The position numbers and the translations under genes are program-made. DNA of 25,022 nucleotides from an uncultured Gammaproteobacteria bacterium (lineage in GTDB: Bacteria > Patescibacteriota > Microgenomatia > Daviesbacterales > UBA10151): positions 1-25,022 of the forward strand of contig CAYHYM010000007.1 in the NCBI GenBank assembly GCA_964360965.1. Direction: 5' to 3'. The notes beneath the pieces were generated by a model, which ran no database searches, was not told where the DNA came from, and was given only the letters and a program-made list of their open reading frames with translations. Of the stretch, positions 224 through 25,022 are shown one piece after another (within the stretch, counting starts at the first letter, position 1; each line of letters begins with the position of its first letter).

Positions 224-230
224 AAATCTG

Positions 231-301
231 TCGGGGAGGGGAGAATCGAACTCCCGATGCCGCACCCCCAGCGCGGCGTGTTACCACTATACTACTCCCC
301 G
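231..301 (-). tRNA. tRNA-Pro, anticodon GGG, with no encoded CCA
   Basis: Minus strand reads CGGGGAG TA GTAT AGTGGTA ACAC G CCGCG CTGGGGG TGCGG CATC GGGAG TTCGATT CTCCC CTCCCCG A. The acceptor stem has 7 bp with C1-G72 and discriminator A73. The anticodon loop is CU-GGG-GG with G37, and the T-loop is TTCGATT. The D-stem has one A-C mismatch. The next bases are CAG, so CCA is not encoded. Confidence 0.85.
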
Positions 302-509: not shown

Positions 510-989
510 ATGCTGAATAAATTTTGGAGTTGGTATGAGAGCCATCTTACTTTTCACACGACCCTTGCTGCTAGTCTTTTTGCCTTACAACTTATCCACC
601 TGTACTGGCTAACAACTCACGTTGTAACATTTAGACTATTTGGTCTTAATCTATTTTCTCCTCCCCCTTTTTGGGAACTGATGATTATTTTGGTAGATTA
701 TACGGAAATCCCAGCTCTTATTACTGTTTCTTTGGTTTATATTAATAACCAGCGGAAAAAACGCAGCTTTAAAAATTTATTATATCTTAGCTTTTTAAAT
801 ATTCAGTTTTTACATATCTTTTGGATTACAGATGAATTTGTGATTGACACTTTTACCAGAACCACTAGTGCAACCGTTTTCCCCAGTTGGCTGGCCTGGA
901 TAGCCATTTTTATAGATTATCTGGAACTGCCGGTAATTTTTGAAACAGTTAAAAAAACCATTTCTGATATTTCGAAGAAATTAAAATAA
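510..989 (+). CDS. Small integral membrane protein with an internal 2 x 2-TM duplication; function unknown
   Basis: 159-aa ORF with about four hydrophobic segments. The two halves align: LQLIHLYWLTTHVV vs IQFLHIFWITDEFV, and LMIILVDYTEIPALI vs WIAIFIDYLELPVIF, with equal spacing (34 vs 35 residues from H to DY). It is one of only two plus-strand genes I accept. Its stop, TAA at 987-989, directly abuts the rpsI stop at 990-992. Confidence 0.6.
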   Translation: MLNKFWSWYESHLTFHTTLAASLFALQLIHLYWLTTHVVTFRLFGLNLFSPPPFWELMIILVDYTEIPALITVSLVYINNQRKKRSFKNLLYLSFLNIQFLHIFWITDEFVIDTFTRTTSATVFPSWLAWIAIFIDYLELPVIFETVKKTISDISKKLK

Positions 990-4915: not shown

Positions 4916-5692
4916 CTATGGGATATACCTCAGAGCTGTCAAAATTTCCGCCTTTAACTTACCTATTGCCACGGTCATTTCAAAAAGAGCTGACAGTGAA
5001 CCATCAGCTGTAGATATAGTCCAACCATCACTTTCCAAAATTACATCAGCTGAACCCTGAGCATAAATTACTTCTATTGCCAAAGTCATTCCTGATTGCA
5101 GTATTAAACCTGTATTTTTCTTGCCACACCCCGGTACCTGAGGATCTTCATGCAACTTTAGCCCTATTCCATGACCGACTAAACTTCTAACAATACTATA
5201 ACCTGCTTCTTCAACTTTCTTTTGAATGGCAAAGGAAATGTCACCTACCCTATTACCCTCAGTTGCCTGATCTATTCCTTCCCGTAAAGCTTCCTCCCCA
5301 ATTTTAATAAATTTCTCCTTTTCCTGCTGTACCCTGCCCTCTACCCCCTGCCCCCTCACTAATACTGTCCAGGAAGCATCTGTATGCCAACCTTTATATA
5401 CTGCTCCCAAATCCACACTTACCACATCTCCTTCTTCTATTTTTCTTTCAGTTGGTATTCCATGAACTACCTGTTCATTAACTGTGATACAGGTGGTGAA
5501 AAGATACCCGGGCACTGTCTTGAAAGAAGATTCACCTCCTAATTTTTTAATTTCTTCCTCAGAAATTTGATTAAGGTCTAAACTGCTTATGCCAACTTTT
5601 ACATTCTCCAGCACTTTTTTTAAAACTAAAGCGGTAATCCTGCCGCTTTCTCTCATTAATCTTAATTCCTTTCGGGTACGCGGCTTAACCAT
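4916..5692 (-). CDS. map: Methionine aminopeptidase, type I
   Basis: 258 aa. It has the pita-bread fold pattern (VVSVDLGAVYKGWHTD, GHGIGLKLHEDP, LAIEV) and the conserved adk-map-infA position. Confidence 0.93.
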   Translation of the reverse strand: MVKPRTRKELRLMRESGRITALVLKKVLENVKVGISSLDLNQISEEEIKKLGGESSFKTVPGYLFTTCITVNEQVVHGIPTERKIEEGDVVSVDLGAVYKGWHTDASWTVLVRGQGVEGRVQQEKEKFIKIGEEALREGIDQATEGNRVGDISFAIQKKVEEAGYSIVRSLVGHGIGLKLHEDPQVPGCGKKNTGLILQSGMTLAIEVIYAQGSADVILESDGWTISTADGSLSALFEMTVAIGKLKAEILTALRYIP

Positions 5693-15054: not shown

Positions 15055-15835
15055 CTTTTATTTCCTCCTTTTGTGGTTCTGTCTTTTCCACCTTCTGTTC
15101 TCCAGAGTCTTCACTTGATTCTTGATTCTTGTCGCTTGCTTCTTCCTCTTCCTCTATCTTTTCCTCTGGCGGAGGAGTGTAACCTTTAATTCTTCCTAAG
15201 TTTGCCACCATAACCAAACCATTTGTTGAACCAGGTACAGCACCTTTAATAGTTAACAGATTCTTTTCTTTATCCACACCAACCACCTCTAGTCCCTTAG
15301 TGGAAACCTTAACATTTCCCATATGCCCTGCCATTTTCTTACCTTTGTAAACTCTGCCCGGAGTTGTGCCTGAACCAATGGAACCGGGTGCGCGATGTCT
15401 ATCTGATTGGCCGTGAGTTTTTGGTCCTCCATGAAAGCCGTGACGTCTGACACCACCTTGAAACCCCTTTCCTTTGGAAGTACCTGTCACTTTAACCACA
15501 TCTCCAATAGAAAAAACCCGATCAACTGTGATTTGCTGACCAGGTTTCAAATCTCCCCAATCTCCCTGATTTCCCTTATCATCCCTAATCTCCCTAAAGT
15601 GGCGGATCGGTTGCTCTACCCCTGCTTTTTTACCATGTCCAATTTGAGGTTTTTTCACTGACTTCTTACTACCATACCCAATTTGTATCCCGTTATATCC
15701 ATCTTTTCCCTCAGCAGTTTTTAATTGTGTTACAAAATTTGGACCAATTTCTACCATAGTTGCCCCCACCCTTCTTCCCCTAGAGTCGTAAGTGCTAATC
15801 ATTTGTTTTTTTATACCCAATAACGTGTTAATCAT
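15041..15835 (-). CDS. rplC: 50S ribosomal protein uL3 with an acidic C-terminal tail
   Basis: Start taken at ATG 15835 (MINTLLGIKKQMISTYD); the ORF-track start at 15847 is a TTG inside the upstream U-tract. FQGGVRRHGFHGGPKTHGQSDRHRAPGSIG is uL3. The last roughly 44 aa are PPPEEKIEEEEEASDKNQESSEDSGEQKVEKTEPQKEEIKDAQS. Confidence 0.94.
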   Translation of the reverse strand: MINTLLGIKKQMISTYDSRGRRVGATMVEIGPNFVTQLKTAEGKDGYNGIQIGYGSKKSVKKPQIGHGKKAGVEQPIRHFREIRDDKGNQGDWGDLKPGQQITVDRVFSIGDVVKVTGTSKGKGFQGGVRRHGFHGGPKTHGQSDRHRAPGSIGSGTTPGRVYKGKKMAGHMGNVKVSTKGLEVVGVDKEKNLLTIKGAVPGSTNGLVMVANLGRIKGYTPPPEEKIEEEEEASDKNQESSEDSGEQKVEKTEPQKEEIKDAQS

Positions 15836-15845
15836 AAAAATCCAC

Positions 15846-15886
15846 AAAAAAGAGTGAGCCCTTCGACTTTGCTCAGGGTCTCACTC
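15846..15886 (-). terminator. Intrinsic-terminator-like hairpin plus U-tract 10 nt upstream of the rplC start (candidate attenuator)
   Basis: Minus strand reads GAGTGAG-A-CCC TGAGCAAAGTCGAA GGG CTCACTC TTTTTT GTGGATTTTT ATG. The stem is 10 bp with one bulged A, the loop is 14 nt, and six T follow. Confidence 0.5.
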
Positions 15887-15963
15887 AGTAAATGTGCTTA
15901 CACAAATTACTGAAATTTATTTATTTTTATATTTAATTTTTACCATCTGCATGGTATGGGAAA

Positions 15964-15992
15964 ATTGTAACAGAGGCTGAAGCTAATTGCAA
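15964..15992 (-). promoter_or_regulatory. Sigma70-type promoter between rpsJ and rplC
   Basis: Minus strand reads TTGCAA (15992-15987), a 17-nt spacer, then TGT-TACAAT (-10 at 15969-15964, extended TG). It lies 23 nt after the rpsJ stop and about 120 nt upstream of the rplC ATG. Confidence 0.5.
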
Positions 15993-16014
15993 GGAACCGT
16001 GAAACTGTTATAAT
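15987..16014 (+). promoter_or_regulatory. Possible oppositely oriented promoter sharing the palindromic -35 (would drive antisense to rpsJ)
   Basis: Plus strand reads TTGCAA (15987-15992), a 16-nt spacer, then TGT-TATAAT (-10 at 16009-16014). TTGCAA is its own reverse complement and is the same hexamer used by the minus-strand promoter. Confidence 0.25.
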
Positions 16015-16015
16015 A

Positions 16016-16324
16016 TCATATCTTAACTTCAATATCAACTCCTGCAGGGAGTTCCAGATGCGTTAGGGAATCAATTGTTTTTTGGGTTGGTTCTATGATA
16101 TCCAACATTCTTTTGTGAGTTTTTATTTCAAAAGCTTCTCTTGCGTCTTTATCTGTATGTGGAGAAGTCAAAACTGTAATTCTCTCTGTTTTGGTGGGGA
16201 GGGGAATAGGACCAATTACCTTGGCTCCGGTTCTTAAAGCTGTTTCCAGTAAAGACTCACAGGTTTGATCCAAAACCTTATGATCATAACTTTTGAGTCT
16301 AACACGAATTCTACCTTTCGGCAT
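16016..16324 (-). CDS. rpsJ: 30S ribosomal protein uS10
   Basis: 102 aa. [15 protein letters not shown] ... [27 protein letters not shown] is uS10. SD AAGGGG lies upstream. Confidence 0.97.
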
Positions 16325-16362
16325 AAATTATATTTCCCCTTTCAATGTGCTAATTATACTGC

Positions 16363-17547
16363 TTAGGCAATTATTTTGGTAATAACTCCTGCTCCAACGG
16401 TTTTTCCACCTTCACGGATAGCAAATCTCAAACCCTCTTCCATGGCAACAGGGGTAATCAGTTTTCCGGTAATTTTAACAGTATCACCCGGCATGGCCAT
16501 TTCTACACCTTCCGGCAATTGTACTTCACCAGTCACATCTGTAGTTCGAATATAAAACTGCGGTCTGTAGCCTTTGAAAAATGGTGTGTGCCTTCCGCCT
16601 TCTTCTTTGGATAAAACATAAACCTCTGCTTCAAATTCTGCATGTGGGGTAATTGATCCGGGTTTTGCTAAAACTTGACCTCTTTCCACATCATCTTTTT
16701 CAATTCCACGAAGAAGAACCCCTGCATTATCTCCTGCCTGACCCTCATCCAAAAGTTTATGGAACATCTCAATTCCCGTAACCACACTTTTTTTGGTAGG
16801 CCTTATTCCCACAATCTCCACCTCTTCATTTACTTTAACTTTGCCTCTTTCAATTCTGCCTGTGACCACAGTTCCCCTACCTTTAATGGAGAAAACATCC
16901 TCAACTGCCATCAAAAATGGCTTATCCACATCCCGAACAGGAGTGGGAATCCACTCATCAACTTTGGCCATCAGCTCTTCAATTGATTTGACAGCTTCCG
17001 CATCACCATCCAAAGCTTTCTTGGCTGATCCTCGAATAATTGGGGACTGGGGGTCATATTCATATTTTTTAAGTAAATCCCGAATTTCCTCTTCCACCAA
17101 ATCCAAAAGCTCAGGATCATCCACCATATCTACTTTATTAAGATAAACCACAATAGCAGGAACGCCTACCTGACGAGCCAACAGCAAATGTTCACGAGTC
17201 TGCGGCATTGGGCCGTCTGGCGCGGAAACTACCAAAATTGCCCCATCGGTTTGAGCAGCGCCGGTGATCATATTTTTGATATAATCCGCGTGACCGGGCA
17301 TGTCTATGTGAGCGTAGTGTCTTTTTTCTGTCTCATATTCCTGGTGGGAAATGTTAATGGTGATACCGCGGGCTTTTTCCTCAGGGGCGTTGTCAATCTG
17401 ATCTACAGTACGGACCTCGGCCATGCCTTTCGCAGCTAAAACTTTGGTGATTGCTGCAGTTAAGGTAGTTTTACCATGGTCAACATGACCCATGGTACCG
17501 ATATTGACGTGTGGTTTGCTTCTGTCAAACTTTTTCTGTTCAGCCAT
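16363..17547 (-). CDS. tuf: Elongation factor Tu
   Basis: Start taken at [29 protein letters not shown] (ATG at 17547, with AAAGGAG 2 nt upstream). G1-G4 motifs are present ([20 protein letters not shown]). The 23-codon ORF-track extension lies in a GC-rich hairpin and was rejected. Confidence 0.96.
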
Positions 17548-17560
17548 AACTCCTTTGTCA

Positions 17561-17611
17561 TTCCCGCGAAGGTCATCGACTCCGAGGTCGCTCAGACTCG
17601 AGGAGCGGGAA
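17561..17611 (-). repeat. GC-rich palindromic element in the tuf 5' leader
   Basis: Minus strand reads TTCCCGC-(37 nt: TCCTCGAGTCTGAGCGACCTCGGAGTCGATGACCTTC)-GCGGGAA. The closing stem is 7 bp, and the element is markedly GC-rich against AT-rich surroundings. It ends 4 nt before the tuf SD. Confidence 0.45.
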
Positions 17612-17623
17612 TCCATTTAAAAT

Positions 17624-17640
17624 CCAGCTTACTTAGCTGG
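17624..17640 (-). promoter_or_regulatory. Short hairpin CCAGCT-AAGTA-AGCTGG followed by ATTTT (weak terminator or 5' leader stem)
   Basis: Perfect 6-bp stem with a 5-nt loop. It lies downstream of the candidate tuf promoter and upstream of the GC-rich element. Confidence 0.35.
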
Positions 17641-17650
17641 AACATATGAA

Positions 17651-17679
17651 AATATACAATAATTTCCCTGATAATGCAA
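17651..17679 (-). promoter_or_regulatory. Sigma70-type promoter for tuf-rpsJ
   Basis: Minus strand reads TTGCAT (17679-17674), a 17-nt spacer, then TATATT (17656-17651). It lies about 100 nt upstream of the tuf ATG and 24 nt after the stop of the 42-aa peptide gene. Confidence 0.4.
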
Positions 17680-17703
17680 TAGTTAAATTATAAAATGGAT
17701 CAA

Positions 17704-17832
17704 TTAAGAATTTTTTGAACGTTTACTGGGAGAATCTTTTTTACCAAAAGCAATATAAACCAAAGCAAAGGCTATAATAAGCAGTAGATACATCACACCT
17801 ATATTATTAGTAATTTCTCTAAAATCCATCAT
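17704..17832 (-). CDS. 42-aa single-TM mini protein (P3), paralog of P1
   Basis: Hand translation: MMDFREITNNIGVMYLLLIIAFALVYIAFGKKDSPSKRSKNS. AAGGAG lies 3 nt (first ATG) or 6 nt (second ATG) upstream. There is an ATGA overlap with the stop of the 65-aa ORF. 17 of 28 residues are identical to P1 across the TM segment. It is below the ORF-track cut-off. Confidence 0.6.
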   Translation of the reverse strand: MMDFREITNNIGVMYLLLIIAFALVYIAFGKKDSPSKRSKNS

Positions 17833-18026
17833 TTTCTCCTTGATTTTTCCCTCAAATACTTTGCTGCAAACAAAGCTAGTATACCATTTAGAATCTTAAA
17901 TAACAATAAAAAGATGTCCTCCTGACTCCGAAGAGAATAGAACTGAGTCTCAACAAGTGCAGCTATAAACCAAGCTGCGCCGAAGTTGACCAGAAATTCA
18001 GATATAATTTCATACCAAATTCGCAT
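17829..18026 (-). CDS. 65-aa two-TM mini membrane protein with a basic C-terminus
   Basis: MRIWYEIISEFLVNFGAAWFIAALVETQFYSLRSQEDIFLLLFKILNGILALFAAKYLREKSRRK has two hydrophobic helices and ends KSRRK. Its ATG shares one nt with the P1 stop (TAATG). The N-terminal half weakly resembles P1/P3, with E-I, V, I, L-V and F at matching positions. Confidence 0.55.
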   Translation of the reverse strand: MRIWYEIISEFLVNFGAAWFIAALVETQFYSLRSQEDIFLLLFKILNGILALFAAKYLREKSRRK

Positions 18027-18136
18027 TAGGAACGATTTTTAAAGAAAATTATATATACTAGAGGAAAAATTATTAAAACTATTAGATATTCAACAGCGAT
18101 GGCATTAGTAATCTCAGTAAAACTTCTTCCATTCAT
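18026..18136 (-). CDS. 36-aa single-TM mini protein (P1), paralog of P3
   Basis: Hand translation: MNGRSFTEITNAIAVEYLIVLIIFPLVYIIFFKNRS. No SD is visible; a TATACT box ends 6 nt upstream of the ATG, so a leaderless start is possible. DNA-level similarity to P3 is also visible (GARATTACTAAT ... TATCTA ... GTNTATAT). Confidence 0.5.
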   Translation of the reverse strand: MNGRSFTEITNAIAVEYLIVLIIFPLVYIIFFKNRS

Positions 18137-18163
18137 AAGGGTAGTATATCAGATGACAAAATG

Positions 18164-18183
18164 TTCTCGACCGAGAATATAAT
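18164..18183 (+). promoter_or_regulatory. Palindrome TTCTCG-AC-CGAGAA abutting a TATAAT box (candidate operator and -10 for ORF180)
   Basis: 6+6 perfect inverted repeat at 18164-18177 (8 of 10 matches per arm when extended to 18161-18180). TATAAT follows at 18178-18183, and ATGACA lies at 18153-18158 with a 19-nt spacer. It sits in the 111-nt divergent region between P1 and ORF180. Confidence 0.35.
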
Positions 18184-18247
18184 GAATACTGCACCCTAAA
18201 AGCTATGATAGGTGGAAAGCTAAACTAGGTTGTGGTATACATAAACC

Positions 18248-18790
18248 ATGGATTCAGAAGAAACAACTAGTCCAGAACTAGAAACAATGCGTGCTCAAGT
18301 ATGGCAGGAAGTTGAAGACAACTGGCAAAAAGAAGTTAAAAGAAATCCAAAATTAGCAGCAGATGATCCAAAAGTTGTTTATGAAGGAATAGACGAAGCA
18401 GAGATTAATCCAGAATTAAGAGCTAATTATGAGGCTGGGTTTAAGGCTAGAAAAATTGCTAATTTCCTTTATAATTTTCGATCAGATATGCCTAGTAAGT
18501 ATAATCATTTTGTAGAAGTTCTAGGACCAGACTATGTCTACACTGATACTCATACTTCTTATTCTTCTCTTCAATATGGAAAAACAATTGAGCAATATTA
18601 TGGTGAAATTGCAGAGGCTATGAAACAAGCTGGAATCTCTGTAGAAGATTGGCAAAGAATTGAAGAAGAAAGGGATAAAAAAACCTACGGTTTGACTGAA
18701 CTTAAATTTCAAGAAACCTTATTAGATATTTATACTAGACTTAGGCTGATAAATCCTAATGCCCCTAAATTTGATCAGGAACCCATCTAA
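18248..18790 (+). CDS. Acidic 180-aa hypothetical protein (ORF180); no family recognised
   Basis: ORF-track protein MDSEETTSPELETMRAQVWQEVEDNWQKEV.... The plus strand here is purine-rich, matching the coding-strand bias of the other genes in the window. No SD is visible, and no TM segment or motif is recognised. The last 69 nt overlap the 3' end of ORF115 on the other strand. Confidence 0.55.
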   Translation: MDSEETTSPELETMRAQVWQEVEDNWQKEVKRNPKLAADDPKVVYEGIDEAEINPELRANYEAGFKARKIANFLYNFRSDMPSKYNHFVEVLGPDYVYTDTHTSYSSLQYGKTIEQYYGEIAEAMKQAGISVEDWQRIEEERDKKTYGLTELKFQETLLDIYTRLRLINPNAPKFDQEPI

Positions 18791-19069
18791 CTTTACTACT
18801 AGCACCTGCCCCCAATACCAATCACTTAATTCCATTCCATGTCTAAGATTAGTCATGGCTTTATGGATACAGTGGTCATCTCCATAGAAGGTAAACACGA
18901 CAAATCTATTTGGATCTACAATCCTTACGCATCTCCCTTTGATTTCTCCTGTTTCGAGTTTCACCCTTGAGAGCTCAACATGAGCACCAAGTTCAAGAGG
19001 ACTCTTATCCTTATGGCCAATTTCTAAAGGACCAACTTTCCATCTTGGTTCTAATTCATAGAAACCCAT
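18722..19069 (-). CDS. 115-aa hypothetical protein (ORF115), start-stop coupled to fusA
   Basis: Start taken at ATG 19069 (MGFYELEPRWKVGPLEIGHKDK...), one nt after the fusA TAA (TAAcATG). The ORF-track start at 19111 lies inside fusA. The plus strand is pyrimidine-rich, consistent with minus-strand coding. No family is recognised. Confidence 0.55.
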   Translation of the reverse strand: MGFYELEPRWKVGPLEIGHKDKSPLELGAHVELSRVKLETGEIKGRCVRIVDPNRFVVFTFYGDDHCIHKAMTNLRHGMELSDWYWGQVLVVKLDGFLIKFRGIRIYQPKSSINI

Positions 19070-19070
19070 G

Positions 19071-21182
19071 TTAGTGTTCCACTCTTCCTGTAAATCCTGA
19101 GGATTCAACAATTTTGGCAGTTATATTTTGGGGTACAGGTTCATAGTGATCTGCTTCCATGTAGTAAGAAGCTCGTCCTTGTGACATACTGCGCAAAGTG
19201 GTGGCATATCCATGCATCTCTGCCAGAGGTACCAGGGAATTAATAATAGTATAATTTCCTCTTTTTTCCGTTCCCAGGATTTGAGCCCGTTTTTTTGATA
19301 AATCACCAATAATATCTCCCATAAACTCATCAGGCGTTGTCACCTCCACCTTCATAATAGGCTCAAGTAAAATCAATCCTGCTCTTTTGGCCGCATCGGA
19401 AAGGCCCAATGATCCGGCAATTTTAAAGGCAATCTCAGATGAGTCAACCTCATGATAAGAACCATCATAAACAGTCACTTGAATATCAGTCAAAGGATAT
19501 CCTGCCAAAATACCCGTATCTTCTTTCTCAATCACTCCTTTCTCAATAGCCGGAATATACTCTCTTGGTATTGCTCCTCCCACCACTTCTGAGACAAACT
19601 CACGACCCTGACCCCTTGGCAATGACTCTATCTTGATCAAACAATGCCCATATTGCCCTCTGCCCCCAGTTTGCCTAATATATTTTCCTTCACCTTGAGC
19701 ATTTACGGTAATTGTTTCTTTATAGGCAACTTGCGGCTGTCCAACATTGGCCTCAACCTTAAATTCCCTTTTCATCCTCTCCACTAAAAGCTCCAGCTGG
19801 AACTCCCCCATGCCGGCAATAATAGTCTGTCCTGTTTCAGGATCGGATTTTACTCTAAAAGTAGGGTCTTCCTCAGCCAGTCTTCCCAGAGCATAACCCA
19901 ACCTCTCCTGATCGCTTTTGGTTTTTGGCTCAATAGCCAAAGATATGACCGGATCCGGAAATAAGATAGATTCCAAAATAATTGGATAGCTTTCATCACA
20001 TAATGTATTCCCGGTGATGGTGTCTTTGAGCCCCACAGCTGCCACAATTTCACCTGAGAAGGCTTCATCTATTTCTTCCCTGTCATTGGCATACATCAGT
20101 AAGATTCTACCCACTCTTTCTTTGATCTGTTTTGAGCAGTTATAAACATAAGATCCGCTCTTTAGGGTTCCCGAATAAACCCTGATATAGGTCAGTTTCC
20201 CCACATGTGGATCAACCTGGATTTTAAAAACCAGGGCAGAAAGAGGGGCTTGAGGGTCTGCTTTTCTTTGCTCTGACTCTTGCGTTTGCGGATTTTGGCC
20301 GGAGACTTCTGCAATATCTTGGGGAGAAGGCAAAAAATCTACCACAGCATCCAACACTTTCTGAACTCCCTTATTTCGCAAAGATGATCCTGAGAGAACC
20401 GGCACAATTTTACTTTCAATTACAGCCTTTCTTAAAACTCTTTTTAACTCATCTACAGCAATCTCCTGTACCGCCAAATATTTTTCCATCAGTACATCAT
20501 CGCATCCAGCAATTTCCTCTACCAGTTTTTCCCTAGCTTCTTTTACTTCCCGGGCCATATCAGAGGGAATCTCAACCTCACTAAATTCTGCACCGGTGGA
20601 ATCACTTTCCCAAATAAAAGCTTTTTGGGTCAGTAAATCAACAACTCCCTTGAATTCATTTTCCCGTCCTATGGGAATATTATATGCAACTGCATTTGCG
20701 CCCAACTTTTCCCTAGCAGATTTTATTGTTCCCATAAAATCTGCTCCCACCACATCCATTTTATTGGCAAAGGCAATCAGGGGAACCCTGTATTTATTGG
20801 CCTGCCTCCAGACAGTTTCAGTCTGGGATTGCACTCCTGAGGCTGCATCCAAAACTATCACTGCCCCATCCAAAACTCTCAGAGACCGCTCCACCTCTGC
20901 TGTAAAATCAACATGGCCGGGAGTATCAATTAAATTAATCCTGACATCTTTCCAAAAAGTGGTGATGGCAGCAGACATAATAGTCACACCATGCTCTTTT
21001 TCCAGCTCCATCCAGTCAGTCACAGTGGTTCCCTCATCAATATTGCCGATTTTATAAGTTCTGCCTGTGTAAAAAAGGATTCGCTCAGTGGTGGTAGTTT
21101 TACCGGCATCAATATGGGCAATAATGCCAATATTTCTAATTTTATCAAGAGGAAAATCCCTTTTGGTTTTTTGAACAGCCAT
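19071..21182 (-). CDS. fusA: Elongation factor G
   Basis: 703 aa. [47 protein letters not shown] and NKMD match EF-G, and all five EF-G domains are recognisable by length and motifs. Confidence 0.97.
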
Positions 21183-21183
21183 A

Positions 21184-21408
21184 TTATATATCCTTTTCCA
21201 GCTCTCTGATCATTTTTTGCATCTGAGCCAGTCTGACCGAAATCATCTCTTGCTGCTCAGTAAACATTTTATAATCAGCATTTTCGGACAAATCTCCTTC
21301 TTGAGCGGCAGTGCCTCTTTTTACCATCACCTCAACCAGCTGCTTTTGCAGCTCCTGTTCCTGTTTTTTCCACATATTCAGTTTCTTTTTTTTAAAATTT
21401 TTATTCAT
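21184..21408 (-). CDS. GreA/GreB N-terminal coiled-coil domain protein, with no C-terminal domain
   Basis: Start taken at ATG 21408 with GGAG 5 nt upstream. [74 protein letters not shown], 74 aa. GDLSENADY...EQQ matches the Gre coiled-coil tip (E. coli GreA GDLKENAEYHAAREQQ). The stop lies one nt before the fusA ATG. Confidence 0.6.
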
Positions 21409-21420
21409 CTCAACTCCAAA

Positions 21421-21450
21421 ATAAAAAAGCCCCCTCAAACACAGGAGGCT
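21421..21450 (-). terminator. Intrinsic-terminator-like hairpin plus U-tract between rpsG and the Gre-like ORF
   Basis: Minus strand reads AGCCTCCT GTGTTTG AGGGGGCT TTTTTATTTT. The stem is 8 bp (one G-U pair, 5 G-C pairs) with a 7-nt loop and a T-rich tail, followed by the SD GGAG and the ATG at 21408. Confidence 0.55.
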
Positions 21451-22443: not shown

Positions 22444-25022
22444 TTAACTTTCTAGTTTAGCCCTTTCAGGACTTGTTGGTATTAAACGTCCAATTATAAC
22501 ATTTTCTTTAAGTCCAATTAACTTATCCACCTTCCCTTGCATCGCAGCATCTGATAACACTGATGTTGTTTCTTGAAATGAGGCAGCAGAAAGGAAACTC
22601 TCAGTTTGAAGTGAAGCCCTGGTGATGCCCAAAATTACTATCTCTGCTGTTGACGGTTCTCCTCCGCCTGCCAAAACCCTTTCGTTTTCTTCCTCAAATC
22701 TTAATTTATCAACTGTCTCCCCAGGCAGTAAATTAGTATCTCCGGCTGATTCAATCCTGACCTTATCCGACATTTTTTTAACAATCACTTCAAAATGCTT
22801 CTCATGAATTGATACCCCCTGTGACACATAAATATTTCTTACCTCATCTATAATATAGCATTGTGACATTCGAAGTCCTTTAACTCTTAAAAGCTCCTTA
22901 ACATCCAAATGGCCGGAGGCCAGTATTTGACCGGCCTGAATCAACTGTCCATCCTCCACCAGTAAAGAAGCAGAGATTGGCACTAAATATTCACGTTCCT
23001 CGTGAGGTTTTTGGGTTGTTCTGACCTTAATTTTTATTCCTGCATCTGCTGTTTCCTCAATAGTCACCTTGCCTGCAATCTCTGATAGGGGAGCAGTAAT
23101 TTTTGGTGTTCGCGCCTCAAACAGCTCTTCTACTCTGGGAAGACCTTGGGTAATATCAACACCGACAATTCCTCCAGTATGGAACGTGCGCATTGTTAAT
23201 TGTGTTCCCGGCTCACCTATTGCCTGCGCCGCCACAACACCTACCGGAATACCGATTTCAACCGGTTGCCTGGTGGTTAAATCAAAACCATAACAAAAAG
23301 AACAAACACCATATTTTGCCTGACAAGTTAGCGGGCTTCGCACCAAAATTTTCTCCACCCCTCCCTTCATTATCTGTTCAATTTGTTCTTCCCTCAGATA
23401 ATCACCTTCTTTTGCTATCACGTTTTTGGTCTTTTGGTCTATTATTTTCTCTAAAGTCCTTCTACCCAAAAATCTGTTTACCATTGTTTGGAACTTTTCA
23501 TGGCTTACTTCCAGAGTAATTCCCTCAGGAGTTTTACAATCTTCGCTTCTGATGATCACATCATGAACCACATCCACCAAACGCCTTGTTAAATACCCCG
23601 CGTCTGCTGTTTTTAAAGCCTTGTCAGCCACGCCCTTTCTGGCACCCCTGGCTGAGGTAAAATACTCAAACACAGAAAGACCTTGTCTGTAATTTGATTT
23701 GGTAGGAAGTTCAACAATCTTACCTGTAGGATCAACTGAAAAACCTCTCATACCTGAAAGTTGTTTAATCTGTTCAGAAGAAGCTCTGGCACTACCTGAA
23801 TCAGCAATGATTTTCACCGGATTGTCACTCTCCAGCAGTTGCCAAGTCAATTTGTAAATTTCTTCTGTAATTTTAATCCACACTTCTTGAGTTAGCATTC
23901 TCTTTTCATCCTCAGTAATTAAACCTCTCTTCAAATTATTTTCAATCCCTGAAACTTCTTTATCGGCTGCGGCGATTAATTTATCTTTTTCTTCCGCAAT
24001 CTTATTGTCGAAAATGCCTACGGAAATGCCGGAAATGGTTGCGCCCCAAAAACCCAAATCTTTAATATCATCAATTAGTGATATTACAATCTGGCGATCA
24101 AATTTATTAAAAGCATCCATGGTAATTTTTTTTATAAAGGCAGCGTTGACATTCTCATTAATAAATCTTAGCTTAAGCGGTAAAATATTGTTAAAGATTA
24201 GCCTCCCTGCCGAAGATATAATAATTTGGTTGTCCATTTTTATTTTTATCCTCTGCCTTAATTTCAATTTGTTATTATAGAAAGCAAGCAATGCTTCTTC
24301 TGGCAAGAAGATTTTCTCTTGAGGATCTATACTTTCATCAATTGAGGTAATATAGTATATCCCCAGCGCCATCTCTCTGTTGGGAAGTGTCACAGGTGAA
24401 CCGTCCGCAGGTTTTAGGATATTTTCCTGAGCCATCATCAATTTTTTAGCTTCTTCCTGAGCCTTTTGGGACAGTGGCACATGAACCGCCATTTGGTCAC
24501 CGTCAAAATCAGCATTAAAACCTGCGCAAATACAAGGATGTATGGCAATGACATTGCTATCCACCAGAACCGGATAAAAGGCTTGTATACCCAGTCTATG
24601 CAGTGTGGGGGCACGGTTAATAAGAATCGGGTGATTTTCTATAATCTCCTCTAAAATATCCCAAACTTCTGCTGATCTATGATCCAGCACATTTTTAGCT
24701 CCTTTAACATTTGAAGACAAACCTCTGGCAATAATCTCTCTTAGTACAAAAGGCTTAAACATCTCCAGCGCCATCTCCTTGGGTAAACCCACCTGATTAA
24801 GGCGAAGTTTAGGTCCAACCACAATCACAGATCTTCCTGAATAATCAACTCTTTTGCCCAAAAGATTTTGTCTAAATCTGCCCTGCTTACCTCCTAGCAT
24901 ATCCGATAAGGAGCGGAGATTGCGTGCTGCTGCCCTTCTGGTGGTGGGTTTTGAAGATGTATCTATTAAACTATCTACTGCCTCCTGCAACATCCTCTTT
25001 TCATTTCTTAAAATTATTTCCG
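22444..25022 (-). CDS. rpoC: DNA-directed RNA polymerase beta' subunit, C-terminal roughly 859 codons; the 5' end lies beyond the right edge
   Basis: The frame is open to the window edge. It contains the catalytic [16 protein letters not shown], the bridge helix ([25 protein letters not shown]) and the trigger-loop region ([17 protein letters not shown]). The stop lies one nt before the rpsL ATG. Confidence 0.97.

Follow-up and report, generated by a model that had tools for sequence, protein, structure and literature searches.

In the canonical str operon, rpsL, rpsG, fusA and tuf are contiguous, and tuf starts ~30–220 nt past the fusA stop codon with no intervening gene. Interrupted translation-gene arrays are known in which small sets of unrelated genes have been inserted in some lineages while the core order and orientation are kept. 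The fusA–tuf interval of Parcubacteria-type CPR bacteria contains a lineage-specific extra gene, the small ‘pre-tuf’ gene, which has weak Phd/YefM-like similarity at its N-terminus and in 18 loci immediately precedes tuf in the same orientation. Holins and type I toxins are familiar as small proteins with one or two helices in the membrane and a basic tail at the C-terminus, features that are generic and not diagnostic. Accessory subunits of the CydX and TatA types are very short single-helix proteins that are conserved between species and the translation of which is coupled to that of a partner gene.

We analyzed a 25,022-nt stretch of DNA (hereafter, the window) from a groundwater CPR (Microgenomates) bacterium, the fusA of which best matches Candidatus Daviesbacteria (75%) and Curtissbacteria (68%). 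In the window, fusA (19071–21182, minus strand) and tuf (16363–17547, minus strand) are separated by 1523 nt. The longest tuf ORF extends to 17616; we chose the start (MAEQKKF) at which homologs begin. The initial annotation had placed five ORFs in this interval, and all five are confirmed at the coordinates given below: ORF115, ORF180, and the small membrane-protein genes mini36, mini65, and mini42. ORF180 had been described as the lone opposite-strand gene of the array, which is borne out within 990–24993, where it is the sole plus-strand gene and every other array gene is on the minus strand. We also agree that the five products lack recognizable motifs, as profile scans with Pfam, NCBIfam, PHROGs, and PADLOC gave no significant match for any of them. 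PDB sequence searches gave no meaningful match, tblastn searches of phage and plasmid collections gave no match, and neither did Rfam and tRNA scans of the fusA–tuf interval. A literature search found no description of ORF180 or of the mini families.

A chimera joining fusA and tuf to foreign DNA during assembly was a concern raised by the initial annotation. Three replicate samples and two Logan runs yielded five independent contigs that are 99.6–100% identical to the window. The three shortest are identical to the window throughout, and none of the five has a mismatch inside the insert. The junctions with fusA, tuf, or both are spanned by contigs L003 (window positions 15184–21397), L002 (17435–24360), and L004 (17584–19367). 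Independent assemblies thus reproduce both junctions, which excludes misassembly for practical purposes, and we give a chimera next to no probability.

We next compared the fusA–tuf junction across bacteria. Among 25 CPR-labelled loci, the distance from fusA to tuf has a median of 534 nt and a maximum of 4.5 kb, with a gap of at least 300 nt in 17 loci and at least 1 kb in six. The corresponding median in 20 non-CPR loci is 131 nt (maximum 219 nt). All 20 non-CPR loci thus have the close fusA–tuf spacing of the canonical str operon, and the window and most CPR-labelled relatives lack it. In the closest reference genome, a Daviesbacteria genome (L007), fusA is followed by a histidine kinase, a toxin-antitoxin pair, and a transposase, and tuf does not occur within 8 kb after fusA. 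Given the CPR median and this tuf-less neighborhood, the premise that the junction is ‘normally contiguous’ fails here: in the lineage of the window, fusA and tuf are not as a rule contiguous. Because splits of this junction are common among CPR genomes, the setting of the locus is not exceptional. The CPR str operon is often broken past fusA, with tuf carrying its own leader.

Like the known interrupted arrays, the window thus carries a small gene set between core translation genes. It differs from them in that the break lies inside the classical str operon and not between operons, in that the host is a CPR bacterium in which this break is frequent, and in that the inserted genes are all uncharacterized. 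The pre-tuf gene likewise indicates that the interval regularly hosts extra genes in CPR genomes; its conserved linkage to tuf sets it apart from the ORFs of the window. We considered whether ORF115 or ORF180 could be a diverged pre-tuf gene and rejected this, as none of the five ORFs is a homolog of the pre-tuf gene (profile scores negative or near zero).

The close relatives are all short contigs of 1.2–2 kb, a span that limits the view of the wider ORF180 context and of the tuf position, and their gene content differs, in keeping with the initial view of the region as accessory. Contig L001, in which the C-terminus of fusA is 88% identical to that of the window, has the order fusA, convergent ORF180, mini42 alone, and then a gene other than tuf. 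It lacks ORF115, mini36, mini65, and a downstream tuf, and the stop codons of fusA and ORF180 overlap directly with nothing in between. Contig L094 has mini65 and mini42 without ORF180 or tuf. ORF180 homologs occur without mini genes in two contigs (L087 and L088), and five others (L089–L093) have the mini pair but neither ORF180 nor fusA or tuf, the neighbors of the pair being purine, MurJ, rpe, or ppa-type genes; these families were searched with word-indexed or pattern-based tools, which may underestimate their distribution. The parts thus differ in distribution, and the five ORFs do not form the single module that had been proposed for them. We consider it probable that the 1.5-kb interval is a loose patchwork of three unrelated sets of small uncharacterized genes and is mostly ordinary. 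The three pieces would represent a lineage-specific build-up at an insertion-tolerant seam. CPR junctions are often broken and filled in a lineage-specific manner, so position beside fusA or tuf carries little functional information. If the patchwork reading holds, it would be wrong to take the locus for a new system linked to translation.

The best conserved piece is a pair of mini genes. mini65 (17829–18026, minus strand) opens the pair and encodes a 65-aa two-helix membrane protein with two hydrophobic segments and a basic tail; its start forms a TAATG overlap with mini36. mini42 (17704–17832, minus strand) has an AGGAG ribosome-binding site and an ATGA overlap with the mini65 stop codon. 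It encodes a 41–42-aa single-pass membrane peptide, the sequence of which includes the motif ..ALVYIAFGKK and a basic tail. We identified the pair in six other metagenome contigs (L089–L094) in unrelated contexts, including one (L091) in which it directly follows rpe. In these contigs, mini42 homologs (50–88% identity) always lie directly behind a gene encoding a 65–73-aa two-helix protein, and the spacing within the pair ranges from −8 to +6 nt across the seven loci, the window included. The window and L089–L094 thus share a provisional pair architecture: a 65–73-aa two-helix protein and, at this spacing, a 37–42-aa one-helix peptide that ends in an ..LVYIAFGKK motif and a basic tail. mini65 homologs are found in L094 (75%), L089 (44%, E = 5e-18), and L091, and hhalign links a distant subgroup from L090, L092, and L093 at 89% probability. 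The mini65 of the window has no family match and no Holin_9 match; Pfam searches with both mini families and PHROGs searches with the mini65 family returned sub-threshold noise only (PsbN, Holin_9, and TetR). An IMG/VR scan with the mini42-family profile gave no match.

mini36 (18026–18136, minus strand) encodes a 36-aa single-pass peptide with one hydrophobic segment that is 56–58% identical to mini42 over 31 aa. Judged by this similarity, mini36 is an extra paralog of mini42. It is missing from L001 and L094, and L089 has, in its stead, a second copy placed after the pair. We thus regard mini65 followed by mini42 as a probable two-gene cassette, to which mini36 would be added as a duplicate.

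Sequence comparison with L001 indicates purifying selection on mini42 (90% identity, dN/dS 0.06) and ORF180 (dN/dS 0.22), with fusA at 0.04. mini65, with its clear homologs, is likewise conserved by sequence. The conservation that the initial annotation had sought in relatives is therefore found for ORF180, mini42, and mini65 and fails for ORF115, a singleton that is absent from L001. Tight coupling suggests that mini65 and mini42 are made together and may assemble in the membrane into a small hetero-oligomeric complex unconnected with translation. The FGKK motif that follows the mini42 helix resembles the hinge of TatA, a resemblance that we treat as a lead only; a weak match to a TatA model in the profile scan is not significant (E = 0.14). 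mini42 shares the small size, single helix, coupling to a partner gene, and conservation of CydX-type and TatA-type subunits but differs from them in having no adjacent partner enzyme or TatC gene and no amphipathic helix. The mini65/mini42 genes represent a small family of paired tiny membrane proteins, present in several groundwater and other metagenomes, that gene callers often miss.

ORF180 (18248–18790, plus strand) encodes a 180-aa acidic protein (pI 4.7) that is predicted to be all-helical and cytoplasmic. We identified a family of four sequences, comprising the window protein and three homologs (P0003, 62% identity; P0004, 53%; and P0005), with 60 invariant columns in their alignment, family profile E-values of 1e-37 to 1e-110, and a conserved core (LYNF..MP..Y / TDTHT.YS.L..GKT). 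The family can be provisionally defined as proteins of ~180 aa with the LYNF..MP..Y, TDTHT.YS.L..GKT, and ELK.QETLL motifs, all of which the window protein has. The value of dN/dS identifies ORF180 as a real gene. Structure prediction, which had been proposed as a check on both soluble proteins, was informative for ORF180 in part: AF2 gives a helical model (pLDDT 71, pTM 0.70), and fold searches of PDB and BFVD with this model found no match (all E > 0.5, TM ~0.2). For ORF115, a single-sequence AF2 model has a pLDDT of 36 and is thus unusable for fold search. ORF180 has no phage or plasmid match, and its profile gave no match in JGI metagenome or IMG/VR scans.

ORF180 homologs elsewhere are not beside fusA or tuf. 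Their neighbors in L087 and L088 include an HTH_17 (excisionase-like) gene and a DUF433 and DUF5615/PIN toxin-antitoxin pair. These excisionase-type and toxin-antitoxin neighbors suggest that ORF180, a member of a rare family of helical proteins, is accessory and probably moves horizontally. Both the ORF180 and the mini families are candidates for the large set of uncharacterized CPR genes, and nothing about them points to a new mechanism.

ORF180 is probably transcribed divergently from the mini genes. The two are separated by a 111-nt region (18137–18247) with two extended −10-like boxes set back to back, TGgTATACA on the side of the ORF180 ATG and TGaTATACT on that of the mini36 ATG, each of which stops 6 nt short of its start codon. 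Both boxes are kept in L001; the ORF180-side box is also kept in L087 and the mini-side stretch in L094. A promoter scan listed the minus-strand TATACT site. The position of the boxes suggests that they are promoters that give rise to leaderless mRNAs. As a point against the patchwork reading, two related genomes (the window and L001) have ORF180 and mini42 side by side in divergent orientation, an arrangement that could reflect a functional link in addition to shared descent.

The third piece, ORF115 (18722–19069, minus strand), begins with an ATG 1 nt past the fusA TAA, and its last 69 nt are antisense to the 3′ end of ORF180. The predicted product is a soluble, basic protein of 115 aa (pI 9.0). 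It matched only itself in a search of 5.8 billion clusters and in an exhaustive search of 1.84 billion representative proteins, and it has no match in a PDB sequence search or an IMG/VR scan. Most of ORF115 lies on a segment bracketed by an imperfect direct repeat, the copies of which are spaced 283 nt apart and identical at 17 of 24 positions. The distal copy (19060–19083) includes the fusA stop region, the proximal copy (18777–18800) is at the ORF180 stop codon, and their core is ATGGGTT(T/C)C on the minus strand. We found no terminal inverted repeats around the 283-nt segment of the kind that a MITE would have. ORF115 is a singleton on a repeat-bounded 283-nt indel, and it would be either a very young or fast-evolving gene expressed by re-initiation after fusA or no gene.

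The coding signal of ORF115 is weak. Its codon-usage log-odds score of 0.12 lies below those of all known genes in the window (0.27–0.56) and overlaps the top of the range of spurious antisense ORFs (−0.66 to 0.13). ORF115 may therefore be a chance open frame over a non-coding 283-nt insertion that reads into the antisense of ORF180, a serious possibility to which we give somewhat less than even weight. The lack of homologs among the 1.84 billion representatives, the absence from L001, and the antisense placement of the final 23 codons against a conserved gene all fit this explanation. So does the missing Shine-Dalgarno motif, although such a motif is present in about half of the known genes of the window (15 of 28) and is thus uninformative for ORF115. 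Other features argue for a gene. An open stretch of at least 115 codons arose in only 33 of 5000 shuffles of the region (0.7%; p ~0.007), the coding frame outscores the other five frames, the sequence is free of low complexity and has a high predicted content of beta-strands, and the start codon is well placed for re-initiation past fusA. If ORF115 is expressed, it would probably be by this route.

We considered three functional or evolutionary alternatives to a patchwork. One, put forward in the initial annotation, is a translation-associated accessory module in which ORF115 is coupled to translation of EF-G and the other products act with EF-G or EF-Tu. The start of ORF115 directly behind fusA, the location of the segment between two GTPase genes, and the greater-than-chance length of ORF115 are compatible with such a module. 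The reading takes its ground from position, however, and that position is not conserved: ORF115 has no homologs and is missing from L001, where fusA abuts ORF180; homologs of ORF180 and of the mini pair occur in contexts without nearby translation genes; and all five ORFs are missing from each of 80 related fusA loci. In addition, ORF180 is encoded on the other strand, and the mini genes are preceded by a conserved putative promoter region of their own. Lack of conserved synteny thus contradicts a translation-associated role, which we consider very improbable. The initial annotation also suggested a toxin-, holin-, or toxin-antitoxin-like module, in which the hydrophobic peptides harm or permeabilize the membrane and the soluble proteins are their partners. 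The mini peptides do share the one or two helices and basic C-terminus that are generic to holins and type I toxins, ORF180 relatives adjoin toxin-antitoxin genes, and one member of the mini65 family weakly matches Holin_9 (E = 0.007). This match, however, covers 23 residues in one of six members and scores 17 bits against a cutoff of 25.3, and the five ORFs have no PADLOC or PHROG match. The mini pair also differs from holins and type I toxins in its setting: it is absent from phage contigs (IMG/VR, mini42-family profile), no endolysin, lysis, or phage genes are found near it in seven loci, and it is kept as a conserved coupled unit in varied, ordinary chromosomal contexts under strong purifying selection. 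ORF115 and ORF180 are convergent and not a co-directional toxin-antitoxin pair. With the single Holin_9 match below threshold, this suggestion gained no positive evidence, and we regard it as improbable. A type II toxin-antitoxin pair formed by ORF115 and ORF180 was considered separately and rejected, given their convergence, the lack of a Pfam, NCBIfam, or PADLOC match, and the absence of ORF115 where ORF180 is conserved.

The remaining alternative sees the interval as what is left of a small integrative or mobile element with the fusA 3′ end as its target. ORF180 and the mini cassette would be the cargo, brought in by recombination at the fusA tail with duplication of the target sequence. 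In L094, the last 10 fusA codons and the stop codon directly follow the mini42 homolog on the same strand, and this copy is identical to the fusA end of L001 at 31 of 35 nt. The direct repeat that bounds the ORF115 segment takes in the fusA stop region, ORF180 relatives adjoin an excisionase-type HTH_17 gene and a toxin-antitoxin pair that are typical of mobile DNA, and gene content varies between close relatives. Against a mobile remnant, the 1.5 kb contains no integrase, transposase, or terminal inverted repeat, and 17617–19070 contains no recombinase-like ORF; IMG/VR, phage, and plasmid collections gave no matches; and five loci have the mini pair without a trace of fusA. Duplication of the target end at the borders is limited to the fusA-tail copy in L094, a contig of 1.2 kb in which the junction falls on a TCTTAA/TCTTCA microhomology and may have arisen as a chimera during assembly. 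The window has just the 10–24-nt imperfect repeat of the ORF115 segment, and in both the window and L001, aligning the fusA tail to the sequence behind mini42 gave scores that did not exceed those of shuffles. We therefore view a mobile remnant as unlikely and prefer the patchwork described above. A more specific proposal, to which we assign an outside chance, is that small gene cassettes of this Microgenomates lineage land specifically at the fusA 3′ end, that the L094 tail and the repeat-bounded ORF115 segment are scars of such events, and that ORF115 is a newborn protein produced by re-initiation behind EF-G. If so, a core translation gene would serve as both the attachment site and the expression driver for new genes.

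As a further point against the patchwork reading, the 10-codon copy of the fusA tail in L094 hints at a specific relation between the mini cassette and the fusA 3′ end.

Downstream of the mini genes, a hairpin with terminator-like features (17623–17641, minus strand; UCCAGCU-AAGUA-AGCUGGA followed by UUUU) was identified by terminator scan and RNA folding between mini42 and the tuf leader, and it may act as a terminator. The tuf leader itself contains a G+C-rich stem-loop (17562–17610, minus strand) just ahead of an AAGGAG ribosome-binding site and of position 17547, the likely tuf start. This stem-loop matches no Rfam family, and the RNA fold of 17540–17705 has a free energy of −46.8 kcal/mol (z = −2.4). 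A spacer and hairpin likewise precede tuf in a Curtissbacteria genome (L008).

The minus-strand array in the window comprises rpoC, rpsL, rpsG, a mini-gene encoding only a GreA N-terminal domain, fusA, the fusA-tuf interval, tuf, rpsJ, and the S10/spc/alpha genes. fusA (encoding EF-G) ends at 19071 and tuf (encoding EF-Tu) most likely starts at 17547 (MAEQKKF), the point where homolog alignments begin, leaving an interval of 1523 nt. As the initial annotation claimed, this interval holds exactly five ORFs: ORF115 (18722-19069, minus strand), whose ATG lies 1 nt past the fusA TAA; ORF180 (18248-18790, plus strand), which overlaps ORF115 by 69 nt; and the minus-strand genes mini36 (18026-18136), mini65 (17829-18026), and mini42 (17704-17832), linked by TAATG and ATGA overlaps. 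The further proposal that these ORFs constitute a five-gene module is not borne out, as the parts have separate histories.

By exact-protein look-ups, the sequence traces to the 0.1-um fraction of Hainich groundwater well H51. Contigs from three replicate and two Logan assemblies are 99.6-100% identical to the window, with zero mismatches within the insert, and independent contigs span the junctions (L003, 15184-21397; L002, 17435-24360; L004, 17584-19367). A chimeric assembly at the fusA or tuf junction is thus excluded. Among closest species representatives, the EF-G proteins most similar to that of the window come from Candidatus Daviesbacteria (75%) and Curtissbacteria (68%), and the organism is thus a Microgenomates-type CPR bacterium. 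In rpoC, L002 and the window differ by a 20-nt indel (22938-22957), with two genes called in L002 and one 849-aa ORF in the window; this difference reflects strain variation or else a misassembly of L002 or the window.

We measured fusA-to-tuf distances in 80 loci fetched with EF-G. In non-CPR-labelled bacteria (20 loci), the distance is 31-219 nt (median 131), whereas CPR-labelled loci (n = 25) have a median of 534 nt and a maximum of 4.5 kb, with gaps of at least 300 nt in 17 and at least 1 kb in 6. In the closest Daviesbacteria genome (L007), the genes after fusA encode a histidine kinase and a large secreted protein, then a toxin-antitoxin pair and an IS200-type transposase, and tuf was not found within 8 kb. 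The premise that fusA and tuf are normally contiguous thus does not hold for CPR bacteria.

In eighteen Parcubacteria-type CPR loci, a small conserved gene lies immediately ahead of tuf (L013 10124-10432, L020 10081-10413, L021 3897-4319, L027 4447-4893, L028 12797-13075, L045 13002-13283, L047 14143-14499, L079 9767-10108, and 10 further loci). Its product combines an N-terminal ..KKTGDRIIIFD..YVVMSLEEYEKL pattern, a central LTEDELLDKINRDIAIWK stretch, and an acidic end (..EEDRQYFEPV), and shows weak, sub-threshold similarity to Phd/YefM antitoxins (E = 6e-4 to 6e-3). This gene is unrelated to the window's five ORFs and, in contrast to them, appears to be a CPR gene genuinely linked to tuf. 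Together with the long gaps and L007, it shows that the junction is variable in the CPR radiation and that added genes are common there. The suggestion of a translation-associated module is not supported; the fusA-tuf site is known to be prone to interruption in CPR genomes. Among described phenomena, the nearest match is the lineage-specific insertions that interrupt the transcription/translation operon supercluster (PMC6735719). New here are only two small, uncharacterised protein families and a single orphan ORF.

The orphan, ORF115, matched only itself, both among 5.8 billion clusters (word-indexed search) and among 1.84 billion representatives (exhaustive HMMER search). Searches of PDB, phage, and IMG/VR sequences gave no match, and a single-sequence structure model was unusable (pLDDT 36). 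The nearest relative, L001 (EF-G C-terminus 88% identical), is missing ORF115, and its fusA stop overlaps the ORF180 stop by 4 nt. The window has 283 additional nt at this site, flanked by an imperfect direct repeat (core ATGGGTT(T/C)C) and lacking inverted termini. ORF115 is longer than expected by chance (its length was reached in 33 of 5000 shuffles) and its reading frame scores highest of the six. Its codon-usage score (0.12) is intermediate, as compared with 0.27-0.56 for real genes and -0.66 to 0.13 for spurious antisense ORFs, and there is a real chance that ORF115 is not a gene.

A profile search identified three relatives of ORF180 (62%, 53%, and one 5'-truncated), all in Logan assemblies. 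Its dN/dS relative to L001 (0.22) shows it to be a real gene. The predicted structure (two-sequence alignment) is all-helical (pLDDT 71, pTM 0.70) and matches no fold in PDB or BFVD; the best-conserved stretch, LYNF..MP..Y....TDTHT.YS.L..GKT, falls in its low-confidence part. The neighbours of ORF180 vary: in the window and L001 the neighbour is fusA, in L087 it is an HTH_17 (excisionase-type) gene, and in L088 a DUF433 and DUF5615/PIN pair. Such variation is typical of an accessory gene rather than of a translation-factor partner. The L088 homolog (1264-1783) lacks the first ~24 codons and begins just past the toxin-antitoxin pair (DUF433 and PIN-like DUF5615), as though its 5' end had been interrupted or replaced by these two genes.

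The paralogs mini36 and mini42 share 56-58% identity; between mini42 and its L001 homolog, identity is 90% and dN/dS is 0.06. Six further loci (L089-L094), found by pattern-scanning JGI metagenomes and by a cluster look-up, each encode a two-helix protein of 65-73 aa followed directly, at -8 to +6 nt, by a mini42-like protein of 37-41 aa (..ALVYIAFGKK and a basic tail). mini65 shares 75% identity with its L094 counterpart and 44% with that of L089 (E = 5e-18), and profile-profile comparison ties it to the L090, L092, and L093 partners (89% probability). The extra one-helix copy follows the pair in L089 and precedes it in the window. Contexts are mutually unrelated (purine, MurJ, and S20 genes in L089; rpe in L091; ppa in L093), with no ORF180, tuf, or intact fusA near the pair in any of the six loci. 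No phage or defence link was found for the mini genes; a single Holin_9 match, to one mini65-family member, is at noise level (17 bits, cutoff 25.3). The mini products are best read as components of a putative small hetero-oligomeric membrane complex.

In L094 (529-564), a copy of the fusA end (its final 10 codons plus the stop) begins right where the mini42 homolog stops, on the same strand and in frame, with unrelated DNA beyond. This copy differs from the window's fusA end at synonymous positions only. It could be an assembly chimera formed at a short microhomology or a displaced duplicate of the fusA end, left behind by recombination there; in the window and L001, no remnant of this kind could be detected. 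Because of this copy, we retain preferential insertion at the fusA 3' end as a hypothesis, though an improbable one.

The 111-nt spacer between mini36 and ORF180 (18137-18247) contains a back-to-back pair of extended -10-like boxes, both of which end 6 nt ahead of a start codon. Their conservation in L001, and partly in L087 and L094, suggests that ORF180 and the mini genes may be expressed as divergent, possibly leaderless, transcripts. A terminator-like hairpin (17641-17623) follows mini42, and upstream of the tuf ribosome-binding site lies a stable G+C-rich stem-loop (17610-17562); the region matches no Rfam family. Of the separate promoter and leader initially proposed for tuf, the leader is plausible; a scan detected no sigma-70-type promoter. 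Curtissbacteria L008 likewise has a spacer and hairpin ahead of tuf.

The longest tuf ORF starts 69 nt upstream of MAEQKKF (extension 17548-17616). Its 23 extra codons overlie the leader stem-loop, and the 417-aa EF-Tu in public gene calls is thus probably over-extended. Between rpsG and fusA, the GreA-type mini-gene (21184-21438, minus strand; 84 aa as the longest ORF, 63 aa in public calls) encodes only the GreA/GreB N-terminal coiled-coil domain (Pfam GreA_GreB_N, E = 1e-9), without the C-terminal RNA-polymerase-binding domain, and L007 has a 76-aa equivalent in the corresponding place (5255-5485). Past rplQ, downstream of the ribosomal array, a tRNA-Pro(GGG) gene (230-301, minus strand) and a 159-aa ORF (510-989, plus strand) mark the limit of the single-strand gene array.
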